A stretch of DNA of 34,093 nt. Origin: an uncultured Candidatus Saccharibacteria bacterium. GTDB lineage: Bacteria; Patescibacteriota; Saccharimonadia; Saccharimonadales; JACDBH01. The notes under the pieces were generated by a model. That model was not told the origin of the DNA. It saw only the letters and a list, made by a program, of their open reading frames with translations, and did no database searches. Positions 2,543 through 34,093 of this stretch are shown in pieces (positions within the stretch are counted from its first letter, which is position 1; each line of letters begins with the position of its first letter). The stretch is taken from assembly GCA_965231105.1 (NCBI GenBank), contig OZ246417.1, forward strand, positions 1 through 34,093. The letters run 5' to 3'. The position numbers were made by a program, and so were the translations under genes.

Positions 2543-3127
2543 TTAGTTTCGTGGCAAGGTTGGGGCAATAACCGGTATAACGGGCATGCTAACCTGTAGT
2601 GCTTCAAAAGCTGAGCGGGTTAGCTCTGCGTCGTGTCGTGTGTAGTTATCATGAAGCATTTCAAGCGCTTGATCTGGCTGTGCCCAGGTTACTTCGTGTC
2701 TTGGATTAGGGTCTGGGCCATACACAATAGTAGGGGCTACTGCAGGCATAAAGATTTTTCCTTTAGCCTTTGGCCAGTTTTCTTTCTCCGGCTTATCAAG
2801 TGGTAGGGGAGCTATATCTACATACGGGATAAGTGTAACAAGCTCAGATACTACTCGCGCATTAGGGCCGAGCGTTGCGTTGGTTCTGTTTCGGGCGGTA
2901 GTTGCCACCTTATCTTGAACTGTTTCGCTAAATTTTGGATTTGGTCGATGTAAACTTCCTTCAGGAAGACGTAACGAAACACCGTTTTTACCAGTAACTA
3001 AGGCAACTGAACCAAGTTGGTTAACAATAACCAGCTTAAGAGCAGGCACATATAACGAATCTGCACGACATGCAGCACCGAGTACATCGGTCGGTTCAAA
3101 CGACTGAGGAATTCTCTCGTAACTCAT
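2543..3127 (-). CDS. Nudix-fold-like protein with a degenerate Nudix box
   Basis: LKLVIVNQLGSVALV...LRLPEG...SETVQDKVATTARNRT...EVTWAQPDQALEML follows the Nudix layout but lacks REUXEE. TATAAT lies 9 nt upstream of ATG. Confidence 0.55.
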   Translation of the reverse strand: MSYERIPQSFEPTDVLGAACRADSLYVPALKLVIVNQLGSVALVTGKNGVSLRLPEGSLHRPNPKFSETVQDKVATTARNRTNATLGPNARVVSELVTLIPYVDIAPLPLDKPEKENWPKAKGKIFMPAVAPTIVYGPDPNPRHEVTWAQPDQALEMLHDNYTRHDAELTRSAFEALQVSMPVIPVIAPTLPRN

Positions 3128-30863: not shown

Positions 30864-31137
30864 GATGAGCTTGTGGAAAACTTTTGTACTCTGAAGCTTA
30901 TCGTTATGGTTAGTACAACGTTTAATAATTGCTACATAACAGTAGATGTTTCATAGCCGCACCTAATTCAACTAAAATACTGAGTTTAGTGTAAATAAGT
31001 CTACGGATTACCTCTAAAAACTTCCCTTATTGTGGTGTGGAAAATTGTATACAAAGTATGTTCAATCGCCGTTGTTCTACCTGTTATTGCACGCGCATAA
31101 TAGTAGGGAATTTACAAAATAAAAAATTCAAACACAA

Positions 31138-31986
31138 ATGTCCCGAGCAAACTCTAACACCTATCGACAGACCTTTTCTCTCAAGAGACTCTGCTTTGCT
31201 GTCTGCGCATTGCTCCTTGTTGCCCTCATGTTTACCAATCTCAGATCCGTTAATGCGAGTTCGGTTGCAGAACAGTTCGAAACAGATGGCGTACTAAAGC
31301 CCGGGCTGCTGGTAAGTACTAGCGAGGTATCAGCGGGAAAGGTTGAATTGGCAACTATCCAGAATAGTGGCTATCTCCTTGGGGTGGTAACGGCAAGCGA
31401 AAGTGCCACGCAGACTTTTAGCAAAGCGGGAGCCTCAACAACGGTTGCTCTTAGCGGTGTAGTTACCGCGTACGTTACTGATGTAAACGGCGAGATCAAG
31501 AAAGGAAGTCTTATCGGGCCATCATGGCTTGAGGGTGTAGGTATGGCTGTACAGGCAGAGAACGTCAACAAAGTTATTGGGGTAGCACAGGAAGATTTTA
31601 ACCCTACCGCTACGACCGAGTTCCCTGATGTGGAGACGCCGAGCGGAAGGCGGGCTGTTAAGGTGGGCTCGGTAGCGATACGGCTCAGTGCTCCACCAGC
31701 GCTTCATGCCCCACTGCAACAATCAGGGGTCGCTGGCTTTACTGCTCGACTGGCTGGCCAGCAGGTATCGTATGCTCGCATCTTTGCAGCTTTTTCTATC
31801 TTCCTCGTCTCCTTGCTGGTATGCGCCATCTTTATCCGAAATGCTATCAAGAGCAGCTTTACCTCACTTGGACGCAATCCGATGGCAAGCCATTCGATCT
31901 ATCGAGGACTTTTGCAGGTATCTCTGGTAGCAGCCGCTGTAATCTTAATCGGGACAGCCGCAGCTTATGCGGTGATCGTGGTCTAA
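31138..31986 (+). CDS. Membrane protein: signal peptide, extracellular beta domain, C-terminal TM hairpin
   Basis: LCFAVCALLLVALMF..VNA signal; beta-rich middle; two C-terminal hydrophobic helices joined by LGRNPMA. Confidence 0.8.
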   Translation: MSRANSNTYRQTFSLKRLCFAVCALLLVALMFTNLRSVNASSVAEQFETDGVLKPGLLVSTSEVSAGKVELATIQNSGYLLGVVTASESATQTFSKAGASTTVALSGVVTAYVTDVNGEIKKGSLIGPSWLEGVGMAVQAENVNKVIGVAQEDFNPTATTEFPDVETPSGRRAVKVGSVAIRLSAPPALHAPLQQSGVAGFTARLAGQQVSYARIFAAFSIFLVSLLVCAIFIRNAIKSSFTSLGRNPMASHSIYRGLLQVSLVAAAVILIGTAAAYAVIVV

Positions 31987-31990
31987 GGCT

Positions 31991-34093
31991 ATGGAACCAG
32001 AGAAAACTCCTCTTGAAAACCAGCTGAGCCAACCGGGCTATGAAGACCTTGTAACCCAGCCTGCTGCCGTGCTTGATGGACCTACCGCAGTTCTCCCAGA
32101 TCGACAGGATCCCATGCTCGAAGTCCAACGAAAGCGAAACAGGGTTATAACTCTTGCGATCGTGCCATTCCTGATCGCATTTGCTCTGGTATTAATCTTT
32201 ACCCTCAGACAGTATGCAGTTCATCACGCCGACTCAAGTGCGCCAGTTATCAACGAGCCCTCTAACACCCTGAACCAAGCAGCACTTCCTGAACTTGATA
32301 CCGCTGTTTCAGAGCTTGAAGCTCCAGACTCCGTACGCTTTAACGGTGAGGTTATCTTGGGTGGCGGTATTGTCTTTACTCCTTCAGCACAGCCTACAAC
32401 ACCATCTGTGGGGCAGGTCTACTACGATGTACAGAGTGATCAGTTGCGCCTCTATGACGGTAGCTTGTTCAGGGATATCATCACCAGCGATAGTACTCAA
32501 ACCATCTGTTACGTCGGAGCCAATTGTGGCTTCTTACAGGCTGGGGACATTGCCAACGTTACTTTGCCCGGACCACTATCAGGGATAACGAGCTTTGCTG
32601 CTAATACGGTGCTGCTTGGTAACGGTAGCGGGACGATAGGGACGAGCAATGCACCTGCTGCTGGGCAATTACTGGTAGCTGATGCTACGGGTAAACCCCA
32701 GTTCGTGACAATTACGGGTTCAATCAGTATCAGCGATAGCGGTGTAGCTGGCCTCAATGTGAACAGCGTTGGAGCCTCCCAGCTCAGTGCGAGCGGTGTA
32801 ACAGCCGGAACCTACGGAGATGCTGGCAACTATCCTGTCTTTACCGTGGACGCAGATGGCCGGGTTACCAGTGCCTCAATCTTGGCACTCCCAGGGGGTG
32901 GAGCAGGGGTGGGATCCGTTAACGGATTAACTGGAGCACTTACCCTTCAGGGCACCTCTAATCAGGTAGGGGTGGTAAGCGGTGGCAGTACTATTACCCT
33001 CTCTACGCCTCAAGATATAGCTACGACCTCAAGCCCAACCTTTAGTGGCCTTACGCTTGCTAGCCTTACGCTCGGGGCTGATACGGTAAGTGATCTATCT
33101 GGTACGGGGCTCACTGTTTCAGCAGGAGCATTGCAAACCACCCTTGGAACCACAGTTGATCTTACTAGTGAAGTAACAGGGACGTTGCCAGTAGGTAGTG
33201 GGGGCACAGGGGCTGCATCGCATACAGCCGGCGGAATCCTTATCGGGAACGGGAGTAGCGCCTTCACTAACTCTGGTGTTCTCACTAACGGACAGTTATT
33301 AATCGGAGATGGATCTGGTGCTCCCACGGCTGCAACCCTTACACAAGGGAGTGGCATAGCTGTCTCAAATGGAGCAGGAACCATCACGATTGCCGTTGAT
33401 AGCACCGTATGTCTTACCTCTGGTAACTGTGTAGGTGTAGGCGGTACGGGTGATATCTTGCAAAACGGAAATAGCTTTACCGGGACCATGACCATTGGTA
33501 CCAATGATAATTTCGATCTTAGTCTCGAAACGAATGGTATAGCTCGGATTACTATCAGTAACGCCGGCAATGTGTCGATAGCAAACAATGCTTCAGTGGA
33601 CGGTAATACGGCACTCGGTAATGCAGTAACAGATAACATTACGCTTACCGGTGCTATACAGGGTACCAACGCGCTTATTTTTGATGGTGCCACCGATGAT
33701 ACAAATGAGATAACCTTTGCTATTACCGATCCAGGAAGCGACTTTACTATTACGCTTCCTGCAGCGTCTGGTACGGTATGTCTCACCTCTGGTAACTGTG
33801 CAGGTATTGGAGGGGTGGGGGATATTATTAACAACGGCCAGAACGGTACGGTACGAATTGGTAGCAACGATGCCAACAGTACAATTCTTGAGTCTAACGG
33901 GGTTGATAGACTAACCATCACAAGCGGCGGTGCAGCCACTTTCTCAGGCTCATTAACTGTTACGGGTCTCACAACACTGAACGGCGATCTCACCGTACAG
34001 ACCGGTGATACCTTCACCTTTAACGGTGATGCGTTTACTGACCTGACGGGCACTGGCCTAACTATCGTTGGCGGTGCATTGCAAACGACGCTC
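31991..34093 (+). CDS. Large membrane-anchored Gly/Thr-rich repeat protein, tail-fibre/adhesin-like (partial, runs off the window)
   Basis: Read by hand: ATG 31991 is open for 701 codons to the last base, so it is absent from the ORF track. MEPEKTP...VITLAIVPFLIAFALVLIFTL (TM)...SGVTAGTYGDAGNYPVFTVDADGRVTSAS...VTGTLPVGSGGTG. Confidence 0.9.
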   Translation, partial: MEPEKTPLENQLSQPGYEDLVTQPAAVLDGPTAVLPDRQDPMLEVQRKRNRVITLAIVPFLIAFALVLIFTLRQYAVHHADSSAPVINEPSNTLNQAALPELDTAVSELEAPDSVRFNGEVILGGGIVFTPSAQPTTPSVGQVYYDVQSDQLRLYDGSLFRDIITSDSTQTICYVGANCGFLQAGDIANVTLPGPLSGITSFAANTVLLGNGSGTIGTSNAPAAGQLLVADATGKPQFVTITGSISISDSGVAGLNVNSVGASQLSASGVTAGTYGDAGNYPVFTVDADGRVTSASILALPGGGAGVGSVNGLTGALTLQGTSNQVGVVSGGSTITLSTPQDIATTSSPTFSGLTLASLTLGADTVSDLSGTGLTVSAGALQTTLGTTVDLTSEVTGTLPVGSGGTGAASHTAGGILIGNGSSAFTNSGVLTNGQLLIGDGSGAPTAATLTQGSGIAVSNGAGTITIAVDSTVCLTSGNCVGVGGTGDILQNGNSFTGTMTIGTNDNFDLSLETNGIARITISNAGNVSIANNASVDGNTALGNAVTDNITLTGAIQGTNALIFDGATDDTNEITFAITDPGSDFTITLPAASGTVCLTSGNCAGIGGVGDIINNGQNGTVRIGSNDANSTILESNGVDRLTITSGGAATFSGSLTVTGLTTLNGDLTVQTGDTFTFNGDAFTDLTGTGLTIVGGALQTTL
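33092..34093 (+). repeat. Protein-level repeat DL(S/T)GTGLT..(A/G)GALQTTL (x2)
   Basis: DLSGTGLTVSAGALQTTL (33092-33145) and DLTGTGLTIVGGALQTTL (34040-34093), 316 codons apart. Confidence 0.85.
33407..33800 (+). repeat. In-frame direct repeat encoding VCLTSGNC (x2)
   Basis: GTATGTCTTACCTCTGGTAACTGTG (33407-33431) and GTATGTCTCACCTCTGGTAACTGTG (33776-33800): 24/25 identical, 123 codons apart. Confidence 0.9.

Follow-up and report, generated by a model that had tools for sequence, protein, structure and literature searches.

The closest described counterparts of the gene considered here, P0001, are the MAT fibres of Bdellovibrio and the receptor-binding proteins of phages. P0001 begins at position 31991 of a 34,093-nucleotide stretch (the window) that forms the start of contig OZ246417.1 in assembly GCA_965231105.1 of an uncultured Candidatus Saccharibacteria bacterium. 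For the MAT fibres, the available structures, those of Bd3182 (PDB 8OJN, 8ONB, and 8ONC) and Bd2133 (8OND), cover the tips only, with Bd3182 extending ~550 A per ~780 residues and the Bd2133 tip ~145 A per 370 residues, and the accompanying table of MAT-like proteins elsewhere lists Micavibrio, Uabimicrobium, and Omnitrophica and no Patescibacteria (PMC10769870; Caulton et al. 2024). Giant surface proteins have also been proposed as host-attachment factors in Vampirococcus lugosii (PMC8080830) and Strigamonas methylophilicida (PMC13059738), and adhesins are essential in Southlakia (PMC10633639). We found no publication that joins MAT fibres with Saccharibacteria or Patescibacteria or that describes the family of P0001 as such.

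Judging from its homologies, P0001 belongs to a large family and is a giant membrane-anchored form of a known kind, that of MAT and phage receptor-binding fibres. We hold with moderate confidence that it encodes an N-anchored, extracellular, probably homotrimeric, disulfide-stapled mosaic fibre for host recognition in a Saccharibacteria episymbiont. Like the MAT proteins, it is a cellular, non-phage fibre, predicted to lie at the surface, of a bacterium that lives off other bacteria; it shares a homologous beta-helix repeat core (E 7e-12) and a mosaic architecture with conservation at one end and diversification at the opposite end; it ends in one of the alternatives seen there, a beta-sandwich in P0001 and an S74 domain in its ortholog P0003; and it is predicted to carry lectin-type binding domains and has several paralogs in its genome. 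Unlike them, it is 3 to 5 times longer (3,017 amino acids [aa] vs about 630-1,300), has a transmembrane (TM) anchor and cytoplasmic tail instead of a signal peptide and, it would seem, of the conserved, beta-rich N-domain of about 130 aa, places binding-type domains in line along the fibre rather than at the tip alone, has paired-Cys loops at junctions whose Bdellovibrionia equivalents are without Cys, does not have the capping-loop motif, is accompanied by a conserved small membrane partner gene, and belongs to a monoderm-like cell. P0001 would thus work like a MAT fibre and shares the MAT repeats without being a typical member.

The likeness to phage receptor-binding proteins, such as those of the pelagiphages HTVC111P and HTVC112P, consists of homologous modules (PHROG E 1e-78), a neck of BppL_N or shoulder type (as an example of the latter, the lactococcal phage receptor-binding protein, PDB 3d8m), a Phage_depo_C-like C-terminal sandwich with S74 in orthologs (compare the S74-type fibres of K1F and T5), and modular exchange of the distal parts. 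In contrast to phage fibres, P0001 is not phage-encoded, has no virion-attachment N-terminus, is anchored in a cell membrane, and is several times longer than typical fibres. With the Vampirococcus and Strigamonas giants it shares very large size, membrane or secreted placement, adhesion-type domains (ConA-like and others), and a proposed role in host recognition; however, those reports list generic adhesion domains, with no phage-fibre or MAT homology, Cys-loop junctions, or partner gene.

Extent, anchor, and modules of P0001

In a scan for open reading frames (ORFs), the frame at 31991 contains no stop up to the end of the window, a run of 701 codons, and continues for 2,316 codons beyond it. 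The source contig, of which the window is the first 34,093 bases, holds the whole genome (903,164 bp, 98% complete), and on it the complete gene occupies 31991-41044 on the + strand with a stop codon at 41042-41044, contains no N, and encodes 3,017 aa, 53% of which are G, T, S, N, or A. The sole strongly hydrophobic stretch of the protein is aa ~49-78 (hydropathy peak at 52, value 3.0). Just ahead of this TM helix stands a basic cluster, RKRNR, which argues that aa 1-51 are inside the cell and the remaining ~2,940 residues outside. The N-terminus shows no AxA-type cleavage site; it has instead a polar tail of 51 aa, which the ortholog conserves and which leads into one TM helix. This anchor stands where the MAT fibres have a cleavable signal peptide and where a phage fibre would have its virion or baseplate attachment domain, neither of which was detected in P0001. 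The region following the TM helix is specific to the lineage of P0001. A sequence-only reading of the window had described an uninterrupted frame of at least 701 codons with a single TM helix at about aa 52-72, three C-x5-C loops, and a second repeat 316 aa away; each of these, along with every motif it quoted, is present in P0001, and the frame runs far past the window rather than ending shortly after it.

Two other modes of anchoring were considered and rejected. A sortase-anchored adhesin would carry LPXTG, a hydrophobic stretch, and a basic tail at its C-terminus, whereas that of P0001 reads ...LIYMNDRWVTLATANN and its only hydrophobic segment is N-terminal. A YadA-type trimeric autotransporter was likewise set aside, as YadA-anchor, Hep_Hag, and HIM gave no Pfam match at E up to 1 across the whole of P0001, and its C-terminus is a soluble beta-sandwich.

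Chunked self-comparison, family mapping, and per-segment profile scans yielded the following map of P0001, with nucleotide positions numbered along the contig.

31991..34093, + strand: giant fibre gene, in-window part, aa 1-701
31991..32143, + strand: predicted cytoplasmic N-terminal tail, aa 1-51, conserved with ortholog P0003
32144..32206, + strand: single TM helix (signal anchor), aa 52-72, from hydropathy
aa 73-130: linker
32387..32500, + strand: Cys-less node-like core (GQVYYD..LRLYDG), aa 133-170; weak match to the node hidden Markov model (HMM), E about 2e-4
32507..32527, + strand: C-x5-C loop 1 (ICYVGANC), aa 173-179
aa 180-460: fibre modules, including the LPxGxGGTG module
33080..33316, + strand: LPxGxGGTG fibre module, aa 364-442
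33410..33625, + strand: C-x5-C loop 2 (aa 474-480) and MAT-like beta-helix core 1 (GDILQNGNSF..MTIGTNDNFDLSLETNGIARITISNAGNV; aa 481-545), from alignment, profile matches, and AlphaFold2 (AF2)
33779..33985, + strand: C-x5-C loop 3 (aa 597-603) and MAT-like core 2 (aa 604-665)
34274-34315, + strand: C-x12-C, aa 762-775
34331-34495, + strand: neck, aa 781-835, recurring at aa 2785-2830
34835-35026, + strand: C-x5-C loop 4 and MAT-like core 3, aa 949-1012; 56% identity to unit 2, E 1.5e-22
aa 1030-1270: near-unique domain
35858-37540, + strand: NxAxG-repeat domain of phage tail-fibre/tailspike type, aa 1290-1850
aa 1850-1990: neck with tail-fibre PHROG matches
37958-40534, + strand: block paralogous to the second giant, P0052, aa 1990-2848, with two beta-rich heads and a two-Cys node
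39308-39670, + strand: two-Cys node, aa 2440-2560
39707-40279, + strand: ConA-like sandwich, aa 2573-2763, from AF2, Foldseek, and phrog_19068 (E 2e-12)
40286-40654, + strand: neck 2, aa 2766-2888; match to 3d8m, E 0.005
40661-41041, + strand: Phage_depo_C-like tip, aa 2891-3017

The LPxGxGGTG module at aa 364-442 recurs at aa 680-749 (55% identity, E 3e-17 in the self-comparison), the second copy starting at 34028 and crossing the end of the window, and it is the most copied window of the family, with 150 copies in 31 proteins. Three units, at aa 464-585, 586-680, and 931-1028, open with a C-x5-C loop. The node, present in 191 copies in 42 of the 72 proteins of the family, gave no significant match when its profile was compared with PDB sequences; the node HMM also matches P0003 at the position equivalent to the node-like core of P0001 (E about 2e-4, weak). 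The block at aa 1990-2848 is co-linear with, and 49% identical to, aa 2631-3481 of P0052, leaving aa 2849-3017 as the remainder of the second neck and the terminal domain.

All 16 Cys residues of P0001 fall into eight pairs (173/179, 474/480, 597/603, 762/775, 949/955, 1264/1271, 2047/2069, and 2540/2549), each no more than 22 residues apart, an arrangement matched by none of 1,000,000 random placements. An alignment of 30 copies of the repeat unit (A7) reveals a shared core of ~60 aa, GDILQGGNSFG..MTIGTND.NF.LNLETNGT.R.TI...GNV, preceded by an element that varies from copy to copy: C-x5-C (VCLTSGNC), C-x12-13-C (GQCLVSAG..WGAC), which the 762/775 pair of P0001 resembles, C-x8-9-C, or a node type (KFRCY..WVDC). 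Downstream of the core, the copies diverge into differing modules. Given this variable Cys element before the core and the divergence after it, the Cys pairs mark module junctions, in keeping with the Cys-paired joints of the sequence-only reading. The AF2 monomer model of aa 455-612 reached moderate confidence (pLDDT 67) and is almost without regular structure, its four strands forming two hairpins whose ends lie exactly at Cys474/Cys480 and Cys597/Cys603; with this moderate-confidence monomer unit, Foldseek returned nothing below E 4. Disulfide formation by the Cys pairs is plausible, and the reduced genome encodes a VKOR homolog (contig 868693-869091, 156 bits), which makes extracytoplasmic disulfide formation plausible in this organism. 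The Bdellovibrionia copies in A7 have Cys-free equivalents (NKFRISENGAAYVDL) ahead of the core, and the Cys density of the Saccharibacteria family is 7.6 per 1,000 residues, nearly all in close pairs, vs 2-4 per 1,000, mostly unpaired, in Bdellovibrionia giants. From these comparisons, the paired-Cys junctions look like a Patescibacteria-specific addition.

For the C-terminal 464 aa, an AF2 monomer built from a checked alignment (A6) has a mean pLDDT of 78 and comprises a confident beta-sandwich at aa ~2573-2763, a neck at aa ~2766-2888 without regular structure, and a beta-sandwich tip at aa ~2891-3017 (pLDDT 78-94). Whole-region alignments (N-terminal 1,200 aa; C-terminal 1,028 aa) were left unused, MAFFT having scattered the repeats and placed homologs of the second lectin on the first. 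Foldseek puts the first sandwich in the ConA-like lectin/carbohydrate-binding module (CBM) fold, with matches to a GH43 C-terminal domain (E 7e-9), CBM66, legume lectins, ERGIC-53, and a mycobacteriophage baseplate protein, and, in a viral structure library, to uncultured Caudovirales proteins (E 6e-12) and minor tail proteins of Gordonia, Streptomyces, and Mycobacterium phages. The tip scores 22.8 bits against Pfam Phage_depo_C, below the cut-off of 25, whereas its homolog P0152 passes at 34 bits, and via such homologs the tip would belong to Phage_depo_C. The tip domain recurs as the extreme C-terminus of proteins of 233 to 3,580 aa. The sequence-only reading had asked whether an S74 chaperone or a lectin would appear on extension; a ConA-like lectin sandwich is there, and S74 lies in the ortholog P0003, with P0001 itself ending in the Phage_depo_C-like tip.

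Homology to predator and phage fibres

The A7 profile matches Bd3182 (E 1.9e-11) and Bd2133 (E 1.8e-10). As A7 held three Bdellovibrionia rows, the profile was rebuilt from Saccharibacteria and Patescibacteria rows only, and it still found Bd3182 at E 7e-12 (per-domain 2e-11) and Bd2133 at E 3e-9. The matched stretches lie within intertwined trimeric beta-helices (PMC10769870). Single-sequence matches in the PDB to the designed beta-propellers Cake and Bagel were judged spurious, no individual stretch being significant and the motif not occurring in 40-aa tandem arrays. The giants of 1,600-2,350 aa at three loci (L012, L014, and L015) of Bdellovibrionia metagenome-assembled genomes share a MAT-like core and an NxAxG domain with the Saccharibacteria giants; their junctions are Cys-free and their capping-loop motifs many.

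Similarity to phage proteins is strongest in the center of P0001. The domain at aa 1290-1850 matches phrog_23837 (E 1e-78), phrog_6002 (E 1e-47), and phrog_4636, 'tail spike protein' (E 2e-46), and, by tblastn, 136 phage genomes; the best of these matches, ~37% identical over about 450 aa, are tail fibres from podophages of Pelagibacter, Methylophilales, and Roseobacter, with cyanophage fibres coming next. Neck 2 weakly matches the N-terminal shoulder of the lactococcal receptor-binding protein, and relatives of this module carry BppL_N, Collar, collagen, and S74 domains. Within the window, similarity to phage proteins is at a weak profile level only, one instance being the match of phrog_31660 (tail fibre protein) to aa 428-470 (E 1e-7). 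The phage-fibre-like modules of the sequence-only reading are therefore borne out strongly at aa 1290-1850 and only faintly in the part from which they were proposed.

In a word-indexed search, modules of P0001 turned up in 71 other proteins, 1,700-5,200 aa long, most of them with the same layout of a single N-terminal TM helix. The family is large, with thousands of matches, and where the sources name them, the homologs come from Saccharibacteria or Saccharimonadales. Peptidase_S74, a chaperone that acts only on trimeric fibres, is found at the C-terminal end of 11 of the 71 relatives, the positional ortholog P0003 included. P0003 is co-linear with P0001 over aa 1-697 (54% identity), corresponding to the in-window part, and beyond aa 697 has a different mosaic with S74 at its end. 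In 6 of 20 species genomes of the same family, modules are shared from aa ~295 onward; aa 1-300 is shared by none of the 20. From these two comparisons, the base is conserved within a narrow lineage and the distal part reshuffled, the same pattern as in phage receptor-binding proteins and MAT fibres. The inter-module DNA repeats are at most 78% identical, indicating that the duplications are old, with no sign of recent cassette recombination.

Proposed mechanism and competing explanations

The fibre interpretation of the sequence-only reading is upheld by the MAT profile homology, the tail-fibre and tailspike matches of aa 1290-1850, and the S74 ends of relatives. P0001 is probably trimeric because the chains homologous to its repeat core intertwine as trimers in crystals, its ortholog ends in S74, and its repeat unit and neck show no stable monomer fold. 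A monomeric beads-on-a-string adhesin of the giant RTX or Bap type, with borrowed phage-like motifs, would accord with the confident folding of the two C-terminal domains as independent monomer beta-sandwiches, but the same three observations stand against it, including the absence of a confident globular monomer for the repeat unit, and we regard it as very unlikely.

In the trimeric fibre that we favor, the signal anchor would bring about the insertion of P0001, the remainder being exported, and a base made up of the cytoplasmic tail, the single TM helix, and fibre modules totalling about 630 residues would hold the fibre on the cell. The chain beyond would alternate MAT- and phage-type beta-helix and fibre modules with in-line beta-sandwich heads, at least one of them ConA-like. 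Trimer folding would most likely be nucleated by the C-terminal sandwich (S74 in the ortholog) from the last-emerging end, after which an intertwined fibre would form as the MAT- and phage-type modules zip up. The hairpins at the junctions, which may behave as hinges, would be locked by disulfides, which would make the exposed fibre more stable. One or more ConA-like heads, and perhaps the tip as well, would bind glycans on the host surface and thereby set host recognition and attachment or contribute to them; the central domain, being tailspike-like, could in addition cut polysaccharide; and the distal modules would be exchanged between lineages, as they are in phage receptor-binding proteins. 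If trimeric throughout, the fibre may be about 0.1-0.2 um long, as scaled from the MAT dimensions (PMC10769870).

The possible cutting activity of the central domain raises the question of whether P0001 is mainly an enzyme, that is, a cell-anchored tailspike-like depolymerase that cuts the polysaccharide of the host capsule or wall, with the lectins serving only to target it. The phrog_4636 match, the 'endo N-acetylneuraminidase' annotations among the phage records matched, the Phage_depo_C-like C-terminal domain, and the resemblance of the ConA-like domain to a GH43 accessory domain are all consistent with such an enzyme. However, no catalytic family emerged from the Pfam or NCBIfam scans of P0001, the GH43 match concerns the non-catalytic beta-sandwich only, and the closest phage matches are annotated as tail fibres and not as enzymes, so that we consider a mainly enzymatic role unlikely. 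A general envelope or matrix fibre, acting as a coat, a spacer, or a link to a biofilm or the cell's own wall with no part in host specificity, would suit a huge gene rich in G, T, S, N, and A and a C-terminal domain conserved over many proteins, and the Vampirococcus giants have been tied to a 'fibrous' cell surface (PMC8080830). A conserved base with swapped distal parts, patchy modules among genera, and lectin heads are nevertheless typical of specificity determinants, and we think it rather improbable that P0001 has no role in specificity.

The phage-type modules along the whole chain could also suggest the remnant of a prophage or tailocin tail-fibre gene, but this origin is effectively refuted. 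No phage structural genes (capsid, portal, terminase, tail-tube, or baseplate) lie near P0001, just as the sequence-only reading had noted; the flanks are housekeeping genes, syntenic in other Saccharibacteria, and not a prophage tail module; a TM anchor takes the place of a virion-attachment domain; and the GC content of the giant gene, 0.49-0.53, is at the upper end of the window's range, in which housekeeping stretches reach 0.52. The suggestion of a domesticated tail fibre is better put by placing P0001 in a superfamily of cellular fibres that have modules in common with phage receptor-binding proteins.

Several observations weigh against the host-recognition fibre that we favor. The N-terminus could be a long cleaved signal instead of an anchor. 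A Pfam scan of P0001 itself gives nothing above threshold, and aa 73-1290 (the N-terminal 1,200 residues) have no tblastn match to phage. The capping-loop motif VG[VI][GN]xxxPxxxL, which reads VGVGTTAPTSAL in Bd3182, has no copies in P0001 or in P0052, P0003, and P0006; it occurs in 83 copies in 36 of the 71 relatives vs 1 after shuffling, and 2-5 times in each Bdellovibrionia fibre giant (L012a, L012c, L014a, and L015a). Finally, the last ~200 residues are conserved in many proteins, an uncommon trait in a receptor-binding tip and a hint that the in-line heads are where recognition sits.

Given its architecture and homologies, P0001 is a strong candidate for the host-recognition factor of this parasite. 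Ultrasmall episymbionts make up about a quarter of bacterial diversity, and to our knowledge, how they choose and hold their hosts is largely unknown, type IV pili being the only system tested so far. P0001 offers a concrete structural candidate for the gripping of hosts, and its modular swapping predicts host range. It also suggests that one shared toolkit links a phage, an invasive predator, and an epibiont, three lifestyles that depend on gripping another bacterium.

Partner gene, upstream element, and neighboring giants

Two features lie immediately upstream of P0001 in the window.

31138..31986, + strand: partner membrane protein, 282 aa, with a signal/anchor, a beta-rich ectodomain, and a C-terminal TM hairpin with a GRNPMAS loop
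31036..31107, + strand: 72-nucleotide (nt) conserved element, with a second copy at contig 41896-41967 before giant 2

The stop of the partner gene is 4 nt ahead of the P0001 ATG. The partner has no Pfam or PHROG match, and in two other genomes its homologs (64% and 32% identity) occupy the position directly upstream of the orthologous giants. Of the order's 121 genomes, 93 contain the partner family. In 9 of the 29 loci sampled, including most of those closest to the P0001 locus, the partner is followed by a P0001-like ORF of at least 427 aa that is open at the end of the locus; these ORFs have a polar head and then a TM helix, as in P0001, and among them is P0022, a family member of 3,293 aa. 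The same kind of ORF comes after the partner at two more loci, L032 (on a short contig) and L053. A module of partner and anchored giant therefore recurs across loci. The partner family is broader than its pairing with giants: in most other partner loci, the next gene encodes a ~210-aa protein with the motif DVEHIFNDEFREELRNRG, and a second partner copy in this genome (contig 484181-485041, - strand) is followed by a ~210-aa protein as well. By eye only, the TM hairpin of the partner, with its GRNP(M/L)AS loop, resembles ATP-synthase c-subunit hairpins.

The two copies of the 72-nt element are 83% identical and are the only two in the genome; about 30-40 nt downstream of them begin the partner-giant operon and the second giant gene, respectively. 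The element holds a palindrome, TTGTATACAA, and a possible promoter, TTGTTC-18 nt-[C/G]ATAAT (CATAAT in the copy at 31036); a consensus promoter scan did not call this candidate sigma-70 promoter. The placement of the copies suggests that both giant operons may be under shared regulation via the element. A wider proposal, in which partner and giant form a host-docking organelle, the Cys hairpins are a Patescibacteria-specific connector for module swapping, host range evolves in a phage-like manner, and the 72-nt element co-switches the operons, is conceivable, although we regard it as doubtful.

Upstream of P0001 are yqeY, ftsA, ftsZ, nrdR, nrdJ, a HAD hydrolase gene, ileS, and rplU, and downstream are genes for a 196-aa anchored protein, P0052, a 223-aa ORF, a 931-aa ORF, parA, parB, and a LytR protein. 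The order is recognizable on a 962-kb JGI contig (nrdJ ... ileS, rplU, a 258-aa partner, a 2,753-aa giant, a 2,656-aa giant ... parA) and on a 720-kb contig (a 4,377-aa giant, a 274-aa partner, a 4,615-aa giant, parA, parB, a signal peptidase, and LytR). Two more giant ORFs in the genome, at contig 117237-124202 (2,321 codons) and 677564-683884 (2,106 codons), share no P0001 modules at E<1e-6 and therefore represent other giant-protein families. P0052 (contig 42006-53705; 3,899 aa) has a cleavable-looking signal peptide and no TM anchor, and it contains Kelch repeats and seven C-x8-C nodes in addition to the 860-aa block paralogous to P0001; a likeness of its N-domain to the Bdellovibrionia giants proved to be apparent only, as BLAST does not support it. 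The 223-aa ORF that follows P0052 (contig 53767-54438) contains one MAT-like core.

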